Shown: one piece after another, positions 3,687 to 37,589 of the stretch | Position numbering within the stretch: the first letter of the stretch is position 1 | How the letters are laid out: each line of letters opens with the position of its first letter | NCBI GenBank assembly: GCA_964545825.1 | Contig: CAZJGX010000001.1 | Coordinates: 1-38,784 of the forward strand | DNA: 38,784 nucleotides | DNA from: an uncultured Muribaculaceae bacterium | GTDB taxonomy: Bacteria; Pseudomonadota; Alphaproteobacteria; Rs-D84 | Reading direction: 5' to 3' | The notes under the pieces: model-generated | What the model saw: only the letters and a program-made list of their open reading frames with translations | What the model was told of the DNA's origin: nothing | Databases searched by the model: none | Program-made: the position numbers and the translations under genes

Positions 3687-3694
3687 GTTTTAAA

Positions 3695-3724
3695 TAAAAA
3701 AACGCACAACTGTGCGTTTTTTTA
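3695..3724 (+). terminator. intrinsic terminator
   Basis: AACGCACA-AC-TGTGCGTT hairpin followed by a T run. Confidence 0.8.
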
Positions 3725-3725
3725 T

Positions 3726-3993
3726 TTGTTTTTATTACTGCTGCATTATATAATTAAAATGTCAATAGGTATTCTGTTGACGGGGTGTGATGACCTCTGC
3801 CATAGCGTCGGGATATATACTCATGGCGCATATAATGCGCTGTTTTTTTTATTGCGACGAAACTATCTCCTGACCTGTGGTCAGGAGGGTTGTGAATATA
3901 TTGAATAAGCACACAATTCTATGGATTGTCATCAACCTCCTGGCCACTAAATTTTTGGTGGTTTTTTGTTTAACAAAATTAGGAGATTAGACA
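3726..3993 (+). promoter_or_regulatory. promoter + structured 5' leader, copy 1 of the repeated leader family
   Basis: -35 TTGTTT 3726-3731, 17-nt spacer, -10 TATAAT 3749-3754. 5' hairpin 3762-3780. GC hairpin 3826-3840 plus U tract. CTCCTGACC 3867-3875 / GGTCAGGAGGG 3879-3889 / CAACCTCCTGGCC 3933-3945. CCAC..GGTGG plus T6 at 3944-3967. AGGAG 3981-3985. ATG 3994. Confidence 0.8.
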
Positions 3994-4410
3994 ATGAAAA
4001 AAATATTGATTCCCGGCATTTTTATAACATGTATTGGTGTTGCCAGTGCGGCAACTGTAAAGTGTATTGCATTTAATACACAAACGGCATGCACTTATGA
4101 TAATCCTGGTGATTATGTAGATTTTACAGCCTATTGTGGTGGTATCACGGTCAGGGGGCTTGGCTATTGTTCAGAACAAAGTGGCAGCAGTGTCGGGTCT
4201 ACGACAATGGATTTGGAAAAGTCAAAAGGTATATATTGTTGGTGTCGTATGGTTTCGCCTGCATTATCCAATTGGGTATATTTGGAAAGTGCCATGGATA
4301 GTAGTCAGTGTGTGCATACGTGCAGCATAGATTGTGCGATTGCGTTGAATGATAGCAGGACGAAGGGTTCCAGTATGCGTCAAGGTATGTTTAATTCTGC
4401 CATTTATTAA
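3994..4410 (+). CDS. secreted cysteine-rich protein (138 aa)
   Basis: Signal peptide MKKILIPGIFITCIGVASA. Many Cys in the mature part. Preceded by leader copy 1 and an AGGAG RBS. Confidence 0.7.
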   Translation: MKKILIPGIFITCIGVASAATVKCIAFNTQTACTYDNPGDYVDFTAYCGGITVRGLGYCSEQSGSSVGSTTMDLEKSKGIYCWCRMVSPALSNWVYLESAMDSSQCVHTCSIDCAIALNDSRTKGSSMRQGMFNSAIY

Positions 4411-10328: not shown

Positions 10329-10342
10329 GGTGTATTTAGTAT

Positions 10343-10370
10343 AAAAAAACGGGCAATTGCCCGTTTTTTT
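10343..10370. terminator. bidirectional intrinsic terminator
   Basis: A7-CGGGCAATTGCCCG-T7 between convergent prfA and the OMP gene. Confidence 0.85.
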
Positions 10371-10383
10371 ATTTGACGTATTA

Positions 10384-13545: not shown

Positions 13546-14212
13546 TTTGTATTTGTAATAAAGTAATTTATGAAAAAAATATGGCGCAAATTTTGCGCCA
13601 TATTTTTTGTGGGATAAAAGGTTGGTGGATGTTGGTGGTTTGTAAAATGATATCTGTTGAAATGGATAAAAGTGTATATTGTTTTGTGTGCAGGGTGACA
13701 TAATCAAAAGGCGCATAATTTATATTATGTATAGTTTTGTGTTCTAGTGGTGTGATGTGGTGTATGATTGGGTGCCGTTTTGATTTTGTTGCTTAAAATA
13801 AAAATGTTTCTGAAATCAGTTTGATAAAAATTATTTTTGATGTTCATTATTAATTTTTTTGTGTTGTTCTGGTGCGAATATTTTTTTGTTCTGTGTTGCA
13901 TTTAATTGAGTGTTATTGGGTCTATATGAAAAACATGGATTTTGTGTTTGTTGTTGTGTGTGTTTTGTGGTGGTTTTTGGATGTTGTTTTGGTTGTGATG
14001 GATGTCTTGGGTGCTCTATTTCTGGTGGTGGGGTTTAATGTAAAACTATACATAATTCTTAAAAGGGTGGTTTATTGTTAAAAATATTTATAAGTGTAAT
14101 AACATTGTAATAATTTTAATTGTTAAAGTAAAATATTGTATCTTTGTCGGTGTTATAATGTTTGTTTTTTTGGTGTGTTGATTTTTTATCTGATGCATTT
14201 ATAATATGTTGT
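13546..14212. other. long non-coding, strongly G+T-biased / C-depleted intergenic region
   Basis: Hand count: about 29 C in 13621-14160 (540 nt). Only one compositional-artefact ORF. Confidence 0.6.
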
Positions 14213-14926
14213 ATGAGTACAAGATTAGATCAAGAATTGGTTTCACGTGGATTGTATATCAGTCGTGCCAAGGCGGTAGCTGCGATAAAGGCCGGCTTGG
14301 TTCGTGTTAATGGTGTTGTTGCGACAAAGGCCAGTCTGGCTGTATCTGATACTGATATTATTGATGGTGCGGATTTGCCGTATGTTTCAGGACGTGGCAG
14401 TTTAAAGTTGGCGCATGCGTTAGATACGTTTCATGTTAATCCGGCGGGATATCAGTGTCTGGATGTTGGTGCCAGTACCGGTGGTTTTACCGAAGTCTTG
14501 TTGTCCCGTGGCGCGGCGCATGTTATTGCGGTGGATGTTGGTTCAAATCAATTGGTTGCCGAAATAAAAAATGATGCCAGGGTTATGTCAATGGAACAGA
14601 CGGATATTCGCACCCTGCCCCCGGTGTCCGGAATTGATTTGATAGTTATTGATGTTTCGTTCGTATCGCTGACCAATATTGCAGATGCGATTGCGGCATG
14701 GCGTTCGCCAGAGATAATTGCGCTGATAAAGCCTCAGTTTGAGGTATCACGTGAAATTGCCGCCCGTTTTAACGGCATTATTAAATCAGAACAATTGCAT
14801 CATGATGTAATTAATCGGGTTGAAAAATGTTTTTCAGCCTTGGGCTATGTATCGCGTGGCGTGATTGAATCGCCAATTCGTGGTGGCAGCGGTAATATTG
14901 AATATTTGGCCTATTTCGTTAAATAA
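14213..14926 (+). CDS. tlyA: TlyA-family 16S/23S rRNA (cytidine-2'-O)-methyltransferase
   Basis: Start at MSTRLDQELVSRGL (S4-like). RGSLKL. LDVGASTGGFTEVLL. IDVSFVSL. G..GNIEYL. Confidence 0.88.
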   Translation: MSTRLDQELVSRGLYISRAKAVAAIKAGLVRVNGVVATKASLAVSDTDIIDGADLPYVSGRGSLKLAHALDTFHVNPAGYQCLDVGASTGGFTEVLLSRGAAHVIAVDVGSNQLVAEIKNDARVMSMEQTDIRTLPPVSGIDLIVIDVSFVSLTNIADAIAAWRSPEIIALIKPQFEVSREIAARFNGIIKSEQLHHDVINRVEKCFSALGYVSRGVIESPIRGGSGNIEYLAYFVK

Positions 14927-14985
14927 AACGTTTTGTGAATTTGTTCTGGTTGAATATAGGTTTAAAAACATACATAATTACAACA

Positions 14986-15052
14986 GGTGGAGGTTCTAAA
15001 CTGTATACTGTGAGACAGCGTCGCTTATTCGACGTATTCACGACCCTCCACC
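14986..15052 (-). ncRNA. orphan copy of the core closing-stem / A+U-rich junction domain of the repeated leader family (no terminator, no downstream gene)
   Basis: RNA sense: GGTGGAGGGTCGTGAATACGTCGAATAAGCGACGCTGTCTCACAGTATACAGTTTAGAACCTCCACC. Collinear with GGTCAGGAGGGTTGTGAATATATTGAATAAGCACACAATTC..AACCTCCTGACC. Confidence 0.45.
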
Positions 15053-15299
15053 TACTTTTGCAGATGAGGGGTGTTTTTTGTCCCCGCGGACACACAGTAT
15101 TTGGGTTTAGCGCCCTTGGCGACAGGAAAAAAAGAACCTGTGCTTGTGCTGATATTTTAAACTAATTTTGGGATAAAAATCAAGTTCTTTTATTAATTGA
15201 TATGTGTTGTAATGTACAAATTGCTTGAATTTAGTGGTGTTGGTGTATAAAATTCAAATTATTTGAATTTAATTAAACAGCAGCCCGAGGTATATAACA

Positions 15300-17743: not shown

Positions 17744-18011
17744 TTGTGTTTTATTTCGGTTGGCGGTATAATCATATTGTTCGTGGGTGTTCCATGAACG
17801 GGGTGTGAGAACCCGGCATAGGCGTCGGAATATGTTCTTGTGGCGTATGATTTGCGCTGTTTTTACTATTGCGACGGAAACAAACTCCTGGCGTTGGTCA
17901 GGAGGGTCGTGAAATATCAAAATAAGCGCACAATTCCTATGATTGTTCTCAACCTCCTGGCCCACCATTTATCGGTGGTTTTTTGTTTGTGATAAATAAC
18001 AGGAGTTTGAA
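17744..18011 (+). promoter_or_regulatory. promoter + structured 5' leader, copy 2
   Basis: -35 TTGTGT 17744-17749, 17 nt, -10 TATAAT 17767-17772. Hairpin GTTCGTGG/CCATGAAC 17779-17799. GGTCAGGAGGG 17896-17906. CAACCTCCTGGCC 17950-17962. CCACC..GGTGG plus T6 ending at 17984. AGGAG 18001-18005. Confidence 0.8.
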
Positions 18012-18539
18012 ATGAATATAAAATCGTTAATTTTTGTTGGGTTTGTGTTATGTGTTCTGGGCAATGCGGCACATGCCGCGGTTATTACTACAAGGTCATG
18101 TTGGTTGGAAAACGCGAATTGTTGTAAATCAAAGGACACTTATTGTTCCGATACACTATGTATGCCTGGCGGAAAGGGAACTTTGTGTCCAACAGAAGGC
18201 GAGACATCTTGTACTTTGCCATTTCAGTTGCAGTGCCAATCGGCTACATATGACGGTTTTAATGGGTATGTTTTGTGTTATGATGTCAGATGCCCTGTTG
18301 AATCGGCTCAATGGTGGTGTGCTGATGGTTTTTATTCCGATGGGGTGTTGGAAACGGATGAAAATGGCAATGAGATTCCGGATTGTTATGAGTGTGATAC
18401 AGCAGGATTGGATAATACACCGGCCAAATCCGATAAAACAGTAAAAGGGGTGGAAGCCTGTTATATACCGGCGGGGGAAATGGTACGTGATAGGTACGGA
18501 AAATATAAATATACAGCCGATTGTCACTATAAATGGTAA
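18012..18539 (+). CDS. secreted cysteine-rich protein (175 aa)
   Basis: Signal peptide ..FVLCVLGNAAHA. 15 Cys in the mature part (hand count). C-terminal ..ACYIPAGE..YKYTADCHYKW. Confidence 0.7.
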   Translation: MNIKSLIFVGFVLCVLGNAAHAAVITTRSCWLENANCCKSKDTYCSDTLCMPGGKGTLCPTEGETSCTLPFQLQCQSATYDGFNGYVLCYDVRCPVESAQWWCADGFYSDGVLETDENGNEIPDCYECDTAGLDNTPAKSDKTVKGVEACYIPAGEMVRDRYGKYKYTADCHYKW

Positions 18540-18566
18540 AAAGAATGCCCCGTTTGGGGCTTTTTT
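18540..18566. terminator. bidirectional terminator between convergent Cys-rich protein genes
   Basis: GCCCC-GTTT-GGGGC flanked by A and T runs. Confidence 0.8.
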
Positions 18567-19362
18567 ACTGTTGATAAAAGCATTCATCGGTTAGAAAAAA
18601 TGTGCCGGTTGTATCTATGAAGGCTTCTTCGTAATAACTGCTTAAACCATCGATATAGCATTCTGTGATACTGGTGGCACCGTCGCTATATGTTTCGCCC
18701 CGTACAGCGGTACCGTTGTGGGCCAATGTGCCCAGGTGGCCGGCGTCACTGTCGGGGCATTCCGTGCATGTGGTGCCGTTTTTGTAATACATATATTTGC
18801 ATATAAATGTTGTTGTGCCGGTGCCACCGTTACATGTTGCGTTTGCCGGGCATGTGATGCATCCGCTGGATGGATTGCCATAGTATCCGGATTTGCATCG
18901 ATATTGTGATGTGGCGGTTTCACCACTGCGTACGTTGCATTTGCCTTGCATTTGGTATGTGTATGTATAATAACGTTCGCGTCCATTGCCGACATCCTGC
19001 CAGCCGCCGTCCGGTGTTGTTTCGCATGCGCAACCGAACTCTGGGCCGCTGGTCATGACATAAACATTATAGCCAATTCTTTCGCATAATGATTCGCAGT
19101 ATGCATATGGTTGACTTGCAGAGTATCCTGTATCTGTGAAATCTTCGCATTTCCCCAGTTCGGCGCGCCAGCAAAAATGTTCTTCTGCTTTGGCGGCGCA
19201 TTGGGTGTCGGTTATATTTGTAAGACTGCCGCCTATAATATAATAGTTAGTGTATGGGCAAACGGTGCCAGTGCATTTGTCCATGATTTGTACTGTTCCT
19301 GATGCGGAATTGGTTATGGCCATGGCAAGTGCCATTGCGGTTAATAATAAATGTTGTTTCAT
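18565..19362 (-). CDS. secreted cysteine-rich protein (265 aa) with CxxGYYG..C..CP-type repeats
   Basis: Start at MKQHLLLTAMALAMAITNSASG. YRCKSGYYGNPSSGCITCPANATCNGG. C-terminal ..ATSITECYIDG..ECFY. Confidence 0.7.
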   Translation of the reverse strand: MKQHLLLTAMALAMAITNSASGTVQIMDKCTGTVCPYTNYYIIGGSLTNITDTQCAAKAEEHFCWRAELGKCEDFTDTGYSASQPYAYCESLCERIGYNVYVMTSGPEFGCACETTPDGGWQDVGNGRERYYTYTYQMQGKCNVRSGETATSQYRCKSGYYGNPSSGCITCPANATCNGGTGTTTFICKYMYYKNGTTCTECPDSDAGHLGTLAHNGTAVRGETYSDGATSITECYIDGLSSYYEEAFIDTTGTFFLTDECFYQQ

Positions 19363-19626
19363 TTGTTCGTTTCTCCTGTGTTTTTCGTAATGAAAAACCA
19401 CCAAATTTTGGTGGTCAGGAGGTTGAGAACAATCCTTAGATTTGTGCCGCTTATTTTTATATATCGCAGCCCTCCTGACCGCTTTGGGCCCAGGAGTTTT
19501 TTCGTCGTATTAAAAAAGGCGCATTGCGCCAATCAATTCCTGACGCTAAGGCAGAGGTTCTCACACCTCATCAACGGAACACCCGTTGACAGTAATAATT
19601 ATATAATGCATGGCATGGAAACACAA
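19363..19626 (-). promoter_or_regulatory. promoter + structured 5' leader, copy 3
   Basis: Minus strand: -35 TTGTGT 19621-19626, 17 nt, -10 TATAAT 19598-19603. GTCAACGG/CCGTTGAT hairpin. GGCGC-AAT-GCGCC plus U6. CTCCTGG../GGTCAGGAGGG (19470-19480)/CTCAACCTCCTGACC (19413-19427). CCACC/GGTGG 19398-19414 plus U run. Confidence 0.8.
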
Positions 19627-19630
19627 ATAA

Positions 19631-19657
19631 AAAAATCCCGCCGTTTGGCGGGTATTG
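19631..19657 (-). terminator. intrinsic terminator of the glycosyltransferase operon
   Basis: CCCGCC-AAAC-GGCGGG plus T7 on the minus strand. Confidence 0.8.
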
Positions 19658-20764
19658 TTATGACCATAATGATTCATACAGTTTTATTGTGTCTGAAATC
19701 ATTTTTTTGCGTGTATATCTGTTCAGAAATCGTGAATATCCTGCAACAGACATGCGGTTGCGTACGGATGCGTTTTCTATAACTTGGCACATTTGGGCCG
19801 CATATTGCGTTGTGTTAATATTGTGTTCATTGTCCACATCAGCATAAAGGGCCGCATTGTCAAACATTTCAACAAGACCGGACACACGTGATGATACGAT
19901 AGGCAGATTATATGACAGTGCCTCGATACCTGCAAAAGAACAGGCTTCTTCCCGGGATGCGAACAGAGCGGCATCTGCTTGCTCGTAATACCGACGAATT
20001 TCGGAATCGTCGGTTAATATGCCTTTATAGACAACCGGCAGGTCGGCGATTTCATCCAGGATGCCTGATGCCTCTGTATCATGGCCACCCAAGACAGTCA
20101 CTTCTATCTTATGTTTTTTTGCAACAGTTCGAATTGCAGGGACTATTTTTGCAAAGCCTTTGTTCTTTGCCAGACCGTTTGCAAATATAAACCGAAATGT
20201 GTCGTCTTTGGGTTTCTTGGATTCGATTTTGGGTTTATCAACACCGTTATAGATTACTGAAAATGGACGCGTGCAATGCCAGTAATCCATATATTTACGA
20301 CCGTTATCGCCAACCAAGATAATTGCATCCATATTAAAGAACGGATCGGCCGGCACAAATCCGGGCGTGTTATTCATTGGCGGCTGGCAATGCAAGACAC
20401 CGATTGTGCGACAATATATGCGGCTTTTTATCATGTATGCCAATCCTTCGCACGACAGACAATCACTTTTTACGATTAGATTCGGCATAGATTTTATCTT
20501 TGGCCAAATCATATTTATAACCGCATCAAACAGGCTTTGAAACGGAAAACCCATCGGGTGAAAAATCTGTAATTCGTCATCGGTATCAACGATACGAATA
20601 TCTTTGTATTCCGTTGAACGATAAAATACGATGTTATACGTTGATATATGCGATGGCATACTGTCGCGCAGAACGCGAAAGTATGTTGCAATACCGCTTT
20701 GATAATGCGCATCACGCGCATCGATTTCTATTATGCTGATAGATTTAAGTGATTTTTTACGCAT
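19658..20764 (-). CDS. glycosyltransferase (GT-B fold, GT4-like)
   Basis: C-terminal EEACSFAGIEALSYNLPIVSSRVSGLVEMF (E-x7-E type region). FIFANGLAKNKG. Starts 9 nt after the upstream stop. Confidence 0.8.
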   Translation of the reverse strand: MRKKSLKSISIIEIDARDAHYQSGIATYFRVLRDSMPSHISTYNIVFYRSTEYKDIRIVDTDDELQIFHPMGFPFQSLFDAVINMIWPKIKSMPNLIVKSDCLSCEGLAYMIKSRIYCRTIGVLHCQPPMNNTPGFVPADPFFNMDAIILVGDNGRKYMDYWHCTRPFSVIYNGVDKPKIESKKPKDDTFRFIFANGLAKNKGFAKIVPAIRTVAKKHKIEVTVLGGHDTEASGILDEIADLPVVYKGILTDDSEIRRYYEQADAALFASREEACSFAGIEALSYNLPIVSSRVSGLVEMFDNAALYADVDNEHNINTTQYAAQMCQVIENASVRNRMSVAGYSRFLNRYTRKKMISDTIKLYESLWS

Positions 20765-21589: not shown

Positions 21590-21859
21590 TTTGTTTGATC
21601 TCCTGTCTTTTTCGAAATGAAAAACCACCCAAAATCAAGGTGGTCAGGAGGTTCAGAACAATCTCAAGAATTGTGTGCTTATTCAATATATTCACAACCC
21701 TCCTGACCATCGGTCAGGAGATTATTATCATCAGAATAAAAAATAGCGCGTTTACGCGCCACAAGATTATATTCCGACGCTTGAGCACGGGTTCTGACAC
21801 CCCATTGACGGAACTCCCGTCAACATTGTTATTATATAATATCATGGGAATTAATACAA
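21590..21859 (-). promoter_or_regulatory. promoter + structured 5' leader, copy 4
   Basis: Minus strand: -35 TTGTAT 21854-21859, 17 nt, -10 TATAAT 21831-21836. GTTGACGG/CCGTCAAT hairpin 21804-21824. GCGCG-TAAA-CGCGC 21746-21759 plus U tract. A 42-nt block at 21667-21708 is identical to 3879-3920. CCACC..GGTGG plus U run. AGGAG. Confidence 0.8.
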
Positions 21860-21861
21860 AT

Positions 21862-21889
21862 AAAAAATCCCGCCGTTTGGCGGGTATTT
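21862..21889 (-). terminator. intrinsic terminator of the rpiB-containing operon
   Basis: CCCGCC-AAAC-GGCGGG plus a T run, near-identical to 19631-19657. Confidence 0.8.
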
Positions 21890-22336
21890 TTATGATATTT
21901 TTTCAATGCGTCTGATACGTCGTTCAATGTTGTCAAACGGGCTTTCCAGAAATGTTTGTGTGCATAGAAATGCAACTTCTATATCTATATCATCGGCGGC
22001 CAATGCCAGAACGTTTATATCGTCGTGAAATCTGTCATCGCGTGCCTGGGTTGGATTGTCGCATCGTGATGCGCGGATATGACGGTATCTGTTCGCTGCG
22101 ATTTCCATGCCGGCACCGGTACCACAAATCAATATGCCGCGTGAGTTTTTGTCGTCTTTCATCGCGTCCGCCAAATCTTTTGCAATATCTGGGAAATCAA
22201 CAGATGTGTTTGGGTCGTCTGTGCCCAAGTTTACAACCGTATATCCGGCCGCGTTCAGCATTTCAATCAGATATAATTTTACCCCTACCCCACGGTGGTC
22301 AGCCGCAATATAGACCTTGGATACGTTTTTGTTCAT
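21890..22336 (-). CDS. rpiB: ribose-5-phosphate isomerase B
   Basis: Start at MNKNVSKVYIAADHRG, ILICGTGAGMEIAANR. ATGA overlap with the bactofilin stop. Confidence 0.88.
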   Translation of the reverse strand: MNKNVSKVYIAADHRGVGVKLYLIEMLNAAGYTVVNLGTDDPNTSVDFPDIAKDLADAMKDDKNSRGILICGTGAGMEIAANRYRHIRASRCDNPTQARDDRFHDDINVLALAADDIDIEVAFLCTQTFLESPFDNIERRIRRIEKIS

Positions 22337-31149: not shown

Positions 31150-31236
31150 GCGGATATGGCGGAATTGGTAGACGCGCTAGTTTCAGGTACTAGTGGCAGC
31201 AATGCCTTGGAAGTTCGAGTCTTCTTATCCGCACCA
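31150..31236 (+). tRNA. tRNA-Leu(CAG)
   Basis: Cloverleaf: acceptor GCGGATA/TATCCGC, anticodon stem CTAGT/ACTAG with loop TTCAGGT, long variable arm, TTCGAGT T-loop, encoded CCA. Confidence 0.9.
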
Positions 31237-31241
31237 GTTTT

Positions 31242-31317
31242 GGGGTTGTAGCTCAGTTGATAGAGCGCTACGTTCGCATCGTAGAGGTCGTGGGTTTGAG
31301 TCCCATCAGCTCCACCA
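31242..31317 (+). tRNA. tRNA-Ala(CGC)
   Basis: Acceptor GGGGTTG/CAGCTCC with G3:U70, anticodon stem CTACG/CGTAG with loop TTCGCAT, encoded CCA. Confidence 0.9.
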
Positions 31318-31353: not shown

Positions 31354-32487
31354 TTATTCTGATGTTATTGCGTCGTCAATAATTGAATATATGATGCCGT
31401 TAATTTGGGTGCGCAGTTGCCCCGTGTTGCGGTTTGGTGTCATGTTGGCATAGAATATTTTTCCATTTATTTCTGCATACAGGGATGGCGATGTCTTTTT
31501 ATTGTTGCGCAGATGTATTTTTGCATTATTGCCGATATGTAGTACGTGACCACAGTCGCCAGCCTCGTCTGCGCCGGGGCCATACCCAATTGTCGTCAGG
31601 TTATCGGAACATTGATTGCGCGTACCTGGTGTACCATAATTTGTTATTGATGCGGGTGCCCAAAATCCGGCCCCCACAGGTGTACAGATATATAATGGTG
31701 ATTCTGGGCCGCCGGTGGCTGTGTCGTATCCTTGGTTTTCCAGAAATGTATCGGTTATATCATCATAAAATCCGATGCTGTCATCGGATATGCGGCGCAC
31801 AGGTGTATATCGATGAATCAAGTTATTGTCACGATAAATGTATACCCTATATATATTACCATAATATAGTGAGTCATGTGTATCAACGCTTCCTATTTTG
31901 CAGGTTGCCGGTTGTGTATAGTCAACATAGTTATAATCGTGAATATTGTCGCCATTTATTATCAGGCCGCCTGCCCCGATAGATATATCGTACATTTGAT
32001 TGGATTTCAGTTGAGTTTTGTTAATTTGACCGCCGTATCTGAAAAATTCGCTGTATATTTGAAAAGATTTATCGCCCGGCCCCTGGGAGACAAAGTGTCC
32101 GGCGATACTTATTGTGCGCGTTTTTTCGTTTAATGGGTAAAAAACTGCGCGCAGAGTATCGTTGCCGGTTAAATAGACGCCCGTGTCAAATGCCGTGTGT
32201 TTGGTTTGTATTTGTGCATTGGTATCTTTACTGTTATCAAAATGAACGTATTCCAAGATTGCATATTTATTGCTGGGGGTTGGGTAATATCCACCAGGGC
32301 ACGCTATTGCGCATTGTGATATATCTGTTTTTCCATCGGTTGTGTCGGCATCAAATCCCATGGGACAATCCATGCATAATTCGTGTTCGACGTTGTAATA
32401 TGTTGCGCCATGGCATCCGTCGGCGTATGCGTATGTTGTGTTACATGTGTATATAAATGCCGCAATAATGATATATTTGTTGTACAT
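31354..32487 (-). CDS. secreted protein (377 aa): N-terminal Cys-rich module plus beta-rich central/C-terminal region
   Basis: Start at MYNKYIIIAAFIYTCNTTYAYA. CMDCPMGFDADTTDGKTDISQCAIACPGGYY. YRVYIYRDNNLIHRYTPVRRISDDSIGFYDDITDTFLEN. Preceded by leader copy 5. Confidence 0.7.
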   Translation of the reverse strand: MYNKYIIIAAFIYTCNTTYAYADGCHGATYYNVEHELCMDCPMGFDADTTDGKTDISQCAIACPGGYYPTPSNKYAILEYVHFDNSKDTNAQIQTKHTAFDTGVYLTGNDTLRAVFYPLNEKTRTISIAGHFVSQGPGDKSFQIYSEFFRYGGQINKTQLKSNQMYDISIGAGGLIINGDNIHDYNYVDYTQPATCKIGSVDTHDSLYYGNIYRVYIYRDNNLIHRYTPVRRISDDSIGFYDDITDTFLENQGYDTATGGPESPLYICTPVGAGFWAPASITNYGTPGTRNQCSDNLTTIGYGPGADEAGDCGHVLHIGNNAKIHLRNNKKTSPSLYAEINGKIFYANMTPNRNTGQLRTQINGIIYSIIDDAITSE

Positions 32488-32726
32488 AAATCCCCCTATT
32501 CTGCATATGCAAAAACCACCTATGCGTGGTGGTTGGAGGTTCGTTACAATTTTGCTTAAATTGTGCTGTTTATTCGATATATTCACAGGCCCTCCAACCG
32601 CTTCTGATTGGAGATATTTAACGTCGCGCCATTTATGGCGTGGACGAAGCTAAAAGAGGTAACGACACCCCTGTATGATGCATTTCATACATTGCTATTT
32701 TATATTAAAACAGTATTCGTTAGCAA
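32488..32726 (-). promoter_or_regulatory. promoter + structured 5' leader, copy 5 (most divergent, compensatory changes)
   Basis: Minus strand: -35 TTGCTA 32721-32726, 16 nt, -10 TATAAA 32699-32704. GTATGA/TCATAC hairpin. CGCCA-TAAA-TGGCG. CTCCAATC (32606-32613) / GGTTGGAGGG (32590-32599) / CCTCCAACC (32531-32539). CCACC/GGTGG 32516-32532 plus U5. Confidence 0.75.
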
Positions 32727-36161: not shown

Positions 36162-36248
36162 GGGGATATGGCGGAATGGTAGACGCTGAGGACTTAAAAT
36201 CCTTTGGTTATTGCAACCGTGTGGGTTCGAGTCCCACTATCCCCACCA
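36162..36248 (+). tRNA. tRNA-Leu(TAA)
   Basis: Acceptor GGGGATA/TATCCCC, anticodon loop CTTAAAA, long variable arm, GGTTCGAGTCC T-arm, encoded CCA. Confidence 0.88.
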
Positions 36249-36279
36249 CTTGAAAGCGCGCAATGTGCTTTTTTTATTT

Positions 36280-36356
36280 GGATGTGTAGCTCAGTTGGTT
36301 AGAGCGCTTCGTTCACATCGAAGAGGTCGTTAGTTCGAGTCTAATCACATCCACCA
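36280..36356 (+). tRNA. tRNA-Val(CAC)
   Basis: Acceptor GGATGTG/CACATCC, anticodon stem CTTCG/CGAAG with loop TTCACAT, encoded CCA. Confidence 0.88.
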
Positions 36357-36400: not shown

Positions 36401-36430
36401 AAAAAAATCCGTCATTTGGCGGATTTTTTT
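36401..36430 (+). terminator. intrinsic terminator after the tRNA pair
   Basis: TCCGTC-ATTT-GGCGGA plus T7. Confidence 0.8.
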
Positions 36431-36493
36431 ATGGTGCTGAATTAATGCTTTTTTATTAAAAAAAGAAACGATAAATATGTTATAATGTAATGT

Positions 36494-37558
36494 ATGAAAA
36501 AATACTTTATATTTTCTGTTGCTTGTGTGATGGCCGGGGCGTCAAATGCCGCGTCGTTATTGCAGGCTGTCAAATTTCCAAAAACATTTGATGATGTTAA
36601 ATGGTCTGAACGTATGGATGTGTTGGCCGAAGACTATAATAATTATGCAGAATTAAGCCCGTATCAACAATTAAGACTGGTAGAAGCCGAAAATCAGGCG
36701 TATCAAGAAATAGATGCAATAAACGCATCAGAGTGTGCGGCAACGGGAAACGCATGCGATATTGATACACCTATATCTGATGGTAGTACATATACCGTTG
36801 TAATAAATAATAATAGTACACCTATATCTGAAACCGTTGAAAATACGCCTGTGGTGGAATCGTATCCGGTTCAGGAAAATCCCGTTGGTGCATCGTCCGG
36901 TGGGGCGGCACAAACACCAACAGGATATTGTTCTGTTCGGCAACCAGAAATACCACAGGGACAGCAGGTGCCGTTGGGCAGTCCTGTGAATTTTAATGAT
37001 TTGCCGGCCGCGGCATCAGATAGAAGCCGGCGCATCGCCGCAGACAGTAAAAAAGGGAAGTTTTGTTCGCCATATGGTTGTCGCGAGAAATATAACAATC
37101 GTGGAACCTATCGCCCACATCAGGGGATTGATATAGGATGTACTGCGGATTATTTTGGGATGCCGGTTTATACACCTGCCGATGGTGTTGTGACCCAGGT
37201 TAACTATGCCAAAAAAGGAAAGTCGGCTGGAAATTATATTCGTATAAAACATGCGGACGGATGGGAAACACAGTATATGCATTTGGATAAAATTTTTGTT
37301 TCCAAGGGACAATCTGTTAGTGCGGGATGTGCAATTGGGTTATTGGGGCATTCCGGCGGAAATGCGGATTCATCAAATCCATCAATGGGTATAGATATAA
37401 GTCATTTGCATTACGAGGTTATTTATAATGGTTCGGCGTCAAATGTACAAACACCAAACGGCAGTAGTATAAGAGTTGTACGTGGTGGCAATAAGGCATG
37501 TGGTAAATTTAAAGCAAAAATTAAACCGGATGATTTTGTCACATATTATTATAAATAA
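36494..37558 (+). CDS. secreted M23 (LytM) family peptidase
   Basis: Signal peptide ..ACVMAGASNA. HQGIDIGC. YMHLDKIFVSKGQSV..G..IG..GHSGG. HLHYEV. Confidence 0.85.
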   Translation: MKKYFIFSVACVMAGASNAASLLQAVKFPKTFDDVKWSERMDVLAEDYNNYAELSPYQQLRLVEAENQAYQEIDAINASECAATGNACDIDTPISDGSTYTVVINNNSTPISETVENTPVVESYPVQENPVGASSGGAAQTPTGYCSVRQPEIPQGQQVPLGSPVNFNDLPAAASDRSRRIAADSKKGKFCSPYGCREKYNNRGTYRPHQGIDIGCTADYFGMPVYTPADGVVTQVNYAKKGKSAGNYIRIKHADGWETQYMHLDKIFVSKGQSVSAGCAIGLLGHSGGNADSSNPSMGIDISHLHYEVIYNGSASNVQTPNGSSIRVVRGGNKACGKFKAKIKPDDFVTYYYK

Positions 37559-37583
37559 AAATCCGCCATTTGGCGGATTTTTT
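37556..37583. terminator. bidirectional terminator
   Basis: A5-TCCGCC-ATTT-GGCGGA-T6 between convergent genes. Confidence 0.8.
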
Positions 37584-37589
37584 AATAGA

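Follow-up and report, generated by a model that had tools for sequence, protein, structure and literature searches.

A covarying three-strand leader RNA, probably a transcription attenuator, repeated upstream of secreted-protein genes in Rs-D84 Alphaproteobacteria

A leader with three strands for two helices

The 38,784-nt stretch of contig CAZJGX010000001.1 analysed here (the window), from an uncultured alphaproteobacterium of the order Rs-D84, carries several copies of an intergenic leader. In one of them, copy 5, three strands that can pair in two alternative ways (S1, S2 and S3) all differ from those of copies 1–4, and the question is what kind of element would change in this manner. We conclude that the leader is probably a cis-acting transcription attenuator, in which S1:S2, S2:S3 and an intrinsic terminator would be alternatives, a reading that draws on sequence comparison and modelled folds. 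The minus strand from 32726 to 32485 comprises the complete front end of a small transcription unit, from a promoter-like site through the leader to the Shine–Dalgarno (SD) sequence and ATG. The sequences and coordinates that a first-pass annotation of this DNA had quoted for copy 5 all proved correct on re-reading. The parts of copy 5, with their basis where one applies (MFE, minimum free energy fold), are as follows:

32697–32726, minus strand: promoter-like site, TTGCTA, 18-nt spacer, TAAAAT (sequence reading), with an inferred transcription start near 32690
32673–32690, minus strand: P1, the 5' hairpin GUAUGA/UCAUAC (MFE and family-wide covariation)
32656–32671, minus strand: P2 region GGGG-UGU-CGUU-A-CCUC, a local stem GRGG/CCYC whose 8-nt loop holds the 4-nt box CGUU, the 5' strand of PK1
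32647–32655, minus strand: LR2 5' strand UUUUAGCUU, with its partner AAGCAAAA at 32557–32550 (MFE and covariation)
32622–32646, minus strand: P3/P3a arm CGUC..[CGCCA-UAAA-UGGCG]..GACG, containing the mid-leader hairpin of the first-pass annotation (CGCCA/TGGCG, 32640–32627)
32606–32613, minus strand: S1, CUCCAAUC (also given as CTCCAATC), 5' strand of the putative anti-antiterminator hairpin
32590–32599, minus strand: S2, GGUUGGAGGG (also given as GGTTGGAGGG), the common strand, partner of S1 or S3
32566–32589, minus strand: PJ hairpin CUGU...ACAG with the conserved loop GAAUAUAUCGAAUAAAC (MFE)
32546–32565, minus strand: mini stem CACAAUUU/AAAUUGU enclosing the LR2 3' strand AAGCAAAA (pair counts); the stretch reads CACAAUUU-AAGC-AAAAUUGU
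32541–32547, minus strand: PK1 3' strand GUAACGA, of which AACG pairs with the box CGUU at 32664–32661 (covariation)
32531–32539, minus strand: S3, CCUCCAACC (also given as CCTCCAACC), putative antiterminator with S2, its last 4 nt lying within the terminator 5' arm
32511–32534, minus strand: intrinsic terminator AACCACC-ACGCAUA-GGUGGUU plus U-run (fold and family covariation), with the T-run region at 32530–32511
31354–32496, minus strand: controlled gene, SD GGGGGA at 32496–32491, ATG at 32487, 377 aa

The full-length leader of copy 5 has an MFE of −58 kcal/mol (z = −4.69).

Both alternative helices are maintained

To recruit the family, a pattern derived from the conserved 3' part of the leader was applied to one genome per species across ~185,000 species, which gave at least 120 matches; nhmmer, run on the loci of the first 120 of these and on the window, yielded at least 145 leaders. 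Counts refer to 141 parsed leaders for S2/S3 classes, duplex energies and gene context, and to 116 leaders for folds, boxes and leader open reading frames (ORFs). The covarying positions lay outside the recruiting pattern.

In copies 1–4 the elements follow the same order as in copy 5, and S1 reads CUCCUG(A/G)CC, S2 GGUCAGGAGG and S3 CCUCCUG(A/G)CC. Relative to these, copy 5 has U in place of CA in S2 and A in place of UG in both S1 and S3; in each helix, one pair is deleted and one exchanged. The first-pass annotation had described this as a change of TCAG to TTGG mirrored in both partners. The mirroring holds, but the change is not one of equal length, being an indel combined with a substitution. 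Likewise, the S1 sequence given there for copies 1–4 is right as a general form, but S1 is imperfect in copies 2 and 3 (CUCCUGGCG and CUCCUGGGCC).

Consistent with the earlier claim that both alternative helices are kept in copy 5, double changes are found in each of them. Pairs were counted in a MAFFT alignment (A3) of 40 S1-to-S3 segments that was not fitted to structure and in which the S2 and S3 indels fall in register. S1:S2 is 89.6% paired, with both sides changed at four pairs, and S2:S3 is 95.3% paired, with both sides changed at six pairs, a number that 0 of 500 shuffles reach; sliding the S2:S3 partner by 1–3 columns leaves 23–54% paired. Furthermore, at least five additional independent double changes support S2:S3 beyond the difference between classes A and B described below. 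Leaders L039 and L027 have GGAGUG in S2 and ACUCC in S3 (G-C to U-A), L016 has GACCAGGAGAG and AAUCUCCUGGCC, respectively (two exchanges), and L112 has lost a U-A pair on both sides; a further case is copy 6 of the window, described below. One-sided changes in L087 and L034 yield G.U pairs, and UGGCC in S3 stands opposite GGUCA in S2, again with a G.U pair, in 13 leaders.

The S1:S2 hairpin is predicted by RNAfold in every one of 116 leaders, with a loop that varies freely in sequence and in length (3–10 nt). When each duplex is taken in isolation, S2:S3 is the stronger one in 139 of 141 leaders, with a mean of −20.2 versus −14.2 kcal/mol for S1:S2. In addition, S2 perfectly mimics an SD (AGGAGG), and S1 and S3 mimic the anti-SD (CCUCCU).

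Long-range pairings dominate the structure

Helices other than those of the three strands covary far more strongly than the first-pass annotation had noted; its local hairpins stand, but it had missed the pairings that dominate the structure, which are long-range or pseudoknotted. In PK1, the four variable bases of GRGG-UGU-NNNN-ACC are the exact reverse complement of the four in AUUGU-NNNN-AACCUCC in 114 of 116 leaders, in 23 versions, with the partners separated by ~280 alignment columns (~115–155 nt). The helix (columns 69–74/350–355) is 99.9% paired, and four of its pairs have 44–70 double changes each, which 0 of 500 shuffles reach. Its 3' strand lies 1 nt from S3. Compared with the 23 versions of this two-way box, S1, S2 and S3 are nearly invariant, presumably because of their three-way pairing constraint; the same constraint would explain why a change as rare as that of copy 5 affected all three strands.

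LR2 joins the 6–9 nt after P2 to the bases between CACAAUU and AUUGU, its partner strands lying 90–100 nt apart in the window copies. The longest Watson–Crick run of a leader with its own partner averages 6.5, versus 3.4 for non-self pairs, and RNAalifold recovers the helix at columns 91–94/336–342, with 49–67 double changes at each of columns 91–93 and 5 at column 94/336. This 3' strand had been taken for the loop of a mini-hairpin. The stem of that hairpin is confirmed (99.4% paired, with AU to UA in 6 sequences and AU to GC in 1, and CAAU/AUUG becoming CUAU/AUAG and then CUGU/ACAG in divergent members), but its supposed loop pairs with the strand upstream.

The local P2 stem is covarying as well: column 64/77 holds GC in 89, GU in 15 and AU in 11 leaders, none being unpaired, and in all 11 cases of A it faces U. 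In P1, each of the nine pairs covaries (e.g. column 43/57, CG 38, GC 28, UA 21, AU 9). The terminator stem, previously described as an invariant CCACC/GGTGG, is not: the arm of copy 1 is CCACU (G.U pair), CCGCC/GGCGG, CCGUC/GACGG and CCAUC/GAUGG occur across the family, and covariation is seen at three pairs, including columns 367/393 (AU 100, GC 14) and 369/391 (CG 46, UG 38, UA 14). RNAalifold, which had been proposed as a check, recovered the covariation in LR2, P1 and the terminator. G.U pairs are abundant, with GU in 97 leaders at column 37/62 and in 87 at column 363/397. The P3/P3a arm varies in length across the family. For PJ, the versions GUCGU/ACGAC, GUUGC/GCAAC and GCU(U)GC/GCAGC were read by eye; this pairing, based on eye inspection and the MFE, was not separable from chance in the self versus non-self test. 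Overall, the double changes in both alternative helices, together with this wider covariation, uphold the conclusion of the first-pass annotation that selection acts on the RNA structure.

PK1 can be extended into the 5' half of S3 through GRGGU:ACCUC, a pairing that is compatible in 116 of 116 leaders and appears in RNAalifold and single-sequence MFE folds. P2 and the mini stem on the one hand, and PK1 and LR2 on the other, are both conserved by covariation, which suggests that the RNA is either bistable or folded into H-type pseudoknots; the latter would be feasible with loop linkers of 2 and 1 nt.

Distribution and two old classes

Among the matches listed, all hosts are gut Alphaproteobacteria known from metagenome-assembled genomes (MAGs), namely, Candidatus Enterousia, the termite-gut 'Rickettsiales bacterium' and rumen or faecal MAGs. 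Enterousia is a member of the order Rs-D84, with genomes mostly <1 Mb (PMC12306168). The leader is found in high copy number: the 39-kb window holds 6 copies, and one MAG has at least 7 loci. In the window, strands of the GGTYRGGAGG type number 12 versus 2.8 expected, a count that 0 of 100 shuffles reach. The other copies are:

3754–3967, plus strand: copy 1, class A; S1 3866–3875, S2 3879–3888, S3 3936–3945; gene 3994–4410; nhmmer E 8e-51
17772–17984, plus strand: copy 2, class A; S2 17896–17905, S3 17953–17962; gene 18012–18539
19393–19597, minus strand: copy 3, class A; S2 19480–19471, S3 19422–19413; gene 19362–18565
21620–21831, minus strand: copy 4, class A; S1 21721–21712, S2 21708–21699, S3 21651–21642; gene 21589–20774, then a glycosyltransferase gene at 20764–19658
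14960–15165, minus strand: copy 6, divergent ('class C'), absent from the first-pass annotation; nhmmer E 1.5e-6

Copies 1–4 have a −10 TATAAT upstream of P1, positioned as in copy 5. Copy 6 presents a third version of S2/S3, AGGUGGAGGG and CCUCCACCU, with nine perfect pairs; its box CUAA pairs with UUAG, its LR2 is AUACUGUG/CACAGUAU and its mini stem CUGU/ACAG, and compensatory changes have preserved every helix. It is antisense to, and directed at the 3' end of, the plus-strand ORF 14162–14926, and could be either a relic or a stand-alone RNA.

Two main classes can be distinguished, A (UCAGG) and B (UUGG). Among the 141 parsed leaders, class A combines S2 GUCAGGAGGG with S3 CCUCCUGACC in 80 and with CCUCCUGGCC (G.U pair) in 13, class B combines S2 GGUUGGAGGG or UGUUGGAGGG with S3 CCUCCAACC in 38, and no mixed A/B combination of S2 and S3 occurs. 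Both classes coexist within genomes (the window, JAZQCG01, JAISAB01 and JAFQTD01). On a neighbour-joining tree built from the remainder of the leader, with the S strands masked, the A/B character takes 2 steps, compared with ~25 for shuffled labels, and a single clade holds 26 of 28 class B leaders. Copy 5 is a member of this old class B sublineage, and its triple change was inherited and did not arise in this genome. The difference that had been presented as a peculiarity of copy 5 is real, but it is one between classes across the family.

Two further observations concern class A. Its P3a is a GC-rich hairpin followed by a run of 5–8 U (copies 1–4 at 3828–3850, 17845–17870, 19515–19540 and 21745–21775), a U-run upstream of S1 that resembles an intrinsic terminator or pause site and is absent from copy 5 and most class B leaders. 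Furthermore, a 12-kb contig that is classed as viral carries a complete class A leader (L122, 10250–10640, minus strand, IMG/VR UViG_3300010163_000459), with the terminator CCGUC/GACGG and a signal-peptide gene downstream; this contig is either a piece of bacterial DNA that was mis-binned or a prophage with a leader-gene cassette.

Proposed mechanism and alternative explanations

In all five window copies that precede genes, the MFE fold is the one with the terminator on and comprises P1, the helix GRGGU.GUNNNNAC : GUNNNNA.ACCUC, LR2, P3, S1:S2, PJ and the terminator. Forcing S2:S3 costs 3.4–13.6 kcal/mol across these copies and leaves the terminator stem absent or reduced to 4–5 bp in four of the five (not clearly in copy 1), the terminator 5' arm and S3 having 4–5 nt in common. 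In the forced fold, the local P2 hairpin is found in all five copies and a hairpin at the mini position in copies 1, 3 and 5.

The ~180–215-nt leader would accordingly place a sigma-70-like promoter, a large putative sensor domain and three mutually exclusive strands at the 5' end of the mRNA. During transcription S1:S2, the proposed anti-antiterminator, would be the first to form; S3 would then stay free, the terminator would fold and the gene would be off. S2:S3 would be the antiterminator, depriving the terminator of most of its stem and allowing RNA polymerase to read into the gene. The 5' domain may decide on the availability of S3, because GRGG could either close P2 or extend PK1 into the 5' half of S3 and thereby lock it. 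A candidate effector acting on the 5' domain, be it a small molecule, an ion or an RNA-binding protein, would probably shift the ratio of terminated to read-through transcripts. It is possible, though we hold this more doubtful than attenuation as such, that the leader is an orphan ligand-sensing riboswitch of a new class and the master switch of a secreted or surface Cys-rich proteome in Rs-D84/Enterousia, which at <1 Mb presumably have few protein regulators. Since S2 mimics an SD and S1 and S3 mimic anti-SDs, what the leader senses might instead be not a metabolite but 30S subunits that are free, or the 3' tail of the 16S rRNA.

Several points weigh against the attenuator. Under the nested energy model the off fold is preferred in every case, and therefore switching is only inferred. 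The GRGG:S3 pairing is without compensatory change, and in L039 and L027 the change in S3 is compensated in S2 and not in GRGG. P2 and the mini stem could either coexist or alternate with PK1 and LR2. Copy 6 has neither a recognisable terminator (no CCACC/GGUGG) nor a downstream gene. The A/B triple change amounts to only one or two old evolutionary events. Finally, the recruiting pattern fixed AATAARC, CACAA, ATTGT and AACCTCC, and the conservation of those motifs is partly by construction.

Part of this would also suit a constitutively structured 5' untranslated region that serves stability, processing or a fixed partial termination, with no regulated switch and S1 as a redundant partner: each of the five copies has the off fold as its MFE, and the downstream genes offer no metabolic clue. 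We consider this improbable, because two exclusive helices sharing S2 have both been maintained through coordinated triple changes, P2 covaries locally (AU 11 versus GC 89) although the MFE places GRGG elsewhere, and the systematically greater strength of S2:S3 over S1:S2 is the design of a switch. Somewhat less probable again is a terminated ~190-nt product that acts mainly in trans as a small RNA, its anti-SD-like strands CCUCCUGA binding the SDs (UCAGGAG) of other mRNAs. Such a role would agree with copy 6, which stands alone, and with the SD CAGGRG, to which S1 and S3 are complementary, in 36 of 97 class A genes versus 2 of 42 class B genes. However, this bias may simply follow the descent of the leaders, the predicted folds leave S1 and S3 either paired or buried, and 124 of 141 leaders precede a same-strand ORF with an SD-like motif.

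The three-strand logic (1:2, 2:3, terminator) is identical to that of classical ribosome-mediated attenuation of the trp/his/leu type, with a leader peptide encoded over strand 1, and copy 1 indeed has a 49-codon ORF through S1 and S2. Nevertheless, an ATG ORF ending near S1 is found in only 44 of 116 leaders, with 6–41 codons and no common frame, so that a conserved leader peptide is absent, and in the window the Rfam leader-peptide models match only unrelated terminators. This mechanism is very improbable, the unconserved ORFs effectively refuting it; their scattered lengths also agree with the first-pass annotation, which had argued against selection on a hidden ORF. We give as little credence to a DNA-level repeat (REP- or MITE-like, or a recombination or protein-binding site) that mimics RNA helices. 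Six copies in 39 kb and the leader on the contig classed as viral might suggest one, but the pairing tolerates G.U and not A.C and is therefore strand-specific, and boxes ~115–155 nt apart covary in 23 versions. Moreover, the leaders are always oriented like the gene downstream, preceded by a promoter and followed by a terminator, and no target duplications or terminal repeats were seen flanking the leaders. The mobile-element reading is rejected on the strand-specific G.U pairs and the fixed orientation; the many G.U pairs, which are A.C mismatches on the other strand, likewise bear out the earlier statement that selection is not on the DNA sequence.

Downstream genes and other features of the window

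The ORFs downstream of the leaders start 24–50 nt past the leader in most cases. BLAST groups their products into 25 clusters, of which the largest has 76 members; 101 of 118 begin like signal peptides, and the median Cys content is 5.4%. The 377-aa protein of copy 5 is signal-peptide-like, with 2.4% Cys, and a homolog search returned 13 relatives, all hypothetical. A Pfam/NCBIfam scan gave no match for six proteins of the window, the products of the five first genes and of one second gene; the exception was the second gene after copy 4, which encodes a GT4 glycosyltransferase. The controlled proteins (3994–4410, 18012–18539, 18565–19362, 31354–32487, and those of leaders L014 and L044) make up a lineage-specific set, CxxC-rich with a recurring 'YCWC' motif, and may represent a surface or secreted superfamily of Rs-D84 bacteria.

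The class A SDs CAGGAG and CAGGGG (e.g. 18000–18006, 19377–19372 and 21606–21601) equal the S2 core and are complementary to S1 and S3. The gene SD (CAGGAG) could be a fourth pairing strand or reflect mere shared ancestry, the class bias in SDs being confounded with lineage.

Two other features of the window recur. Tandem tRNA pairs, Leu(CAG)-Ala(CGC) and Leu(UAA)-Val(CAC), lie 5 kb apart at 31150–31317 and 36162–36356, with the long-arm tRNA-Leu first in each. In addition, a near-identical bidirectional terminator hairpin with A- and T-run flanks (AAAAAATCCCGCCGTTTGGCGGGTATT and relatives; families D1 and D3) is repeated between convergent or tandem genes, at these sites:

3694–3728: bidirectional terminator hairpin
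10341–10375: bidirectional terminator hairpin
19630–19663: bidirectional terminator hairpin
21862–21895: bidirectional terminator hairpin
36401–36434: bidirectional terminator hairpin
37555–37588: bidirectional terminator hairpin

If the attenuator reading is true, the leader represents an uncatalogued structured RNA family of at least 140 members, in which covariation is exceptionally clear and which is confined to an uncultured gut lineage with reduced genomes; the family would be worth an entry in RNA databases, so that these intergenic regions are no longer annotated as empty. It would offer an orphan riboswitch or attenuator candidate for a biochemical ligand hunt, a natural three-strand switch whose triple constraint can be read from evolution, and a handle on the control of secreted Cys-rich proteins in possibly host- or partner-dependent bacteria.

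Relation to known regulatory RNAs

With the 4227 covariance models of Rfam 15, only four tRNAs pass the gathering threshold in the whole window. At E ≤ 10, nothing relevant is found on copies 2–5, and copy 1 has only the far-sub-threshold, opposite-strand matches STnc40 and MicC; copies 4 and 5 searched alone with lax filters gave chance matches only (DsrA at 14.8 bits, mir-77, etc.). Within the searchable library, no description of the motif was found in papers on Enterousia or on riboswitches and attenuators of Rs-D84, and the literal S2/S3 strings match unrelated primers only.

Like the trp, his and leu leaders, the family has alternative 1:2, 2:3 and terminator (3:4) hairpins, and as in three-strand attenuators generally (trp/his/leu and the PyrR-bound pyr of B. 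subtilis), the antiterminator is the stronger helix, and the anti-antiterminator would be the kinetically first. Unlike these attenuators, it has a large extra 5' domain with long-range and pseudoknot pairings, and the controlled genes are unrelated to amino-acid or pyrimidine synthesis. It differs from the PyrR-dependent pyr attenuator in having no Rfam PyrR match, an unconserved S1:S2 loop and secreted hypothetical proteins downstream, and from T-box leaders in gene context and in having neither an Rfam T-box match nor T-box features.

The ZTP, fluoride and c-di-GMP-II riboswitches are transcription-terminating riboswitches with pseudoknotted aptamers. The leader resembles them in its covarying multi-helix domain, its loop-to-distal-strand pairings and the adjoining terminator/antiterminator platform, and it resembles terminating riboswitches in having the 3' strand of the sensor pairings directly beside the switching strand. 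More generally, as in riboswitches, a covarying domain (P1, P2, PK1, LR2 and the mini stem) is joined to a platform with which it shares nucleotides. The c-di-GMP-I and -II riboswitches occur in many copies per genome upstream of genes for surface or secreted proteins, much as this multi-copy leader does, but the resemblance is one of gene context only, and neither model (RF01051, RF01786) matches in the window at E ≤ 10. By contrast with known riboswitches, the leader has an extra S1 decoy strand and SD/anti-SD-like switching strands, and matches none of the 4227 Rfam families. Collectively, the comparisons point to a new RNA family that would function like a known kind, namely, a transcription attenuator or orphan riboswitch candidate, and whose unusual traits are the decoy strand, the SD/anti-SD-like switching strands, the double long-range/pseudoknot pairings and the high copy number in very small genomes.

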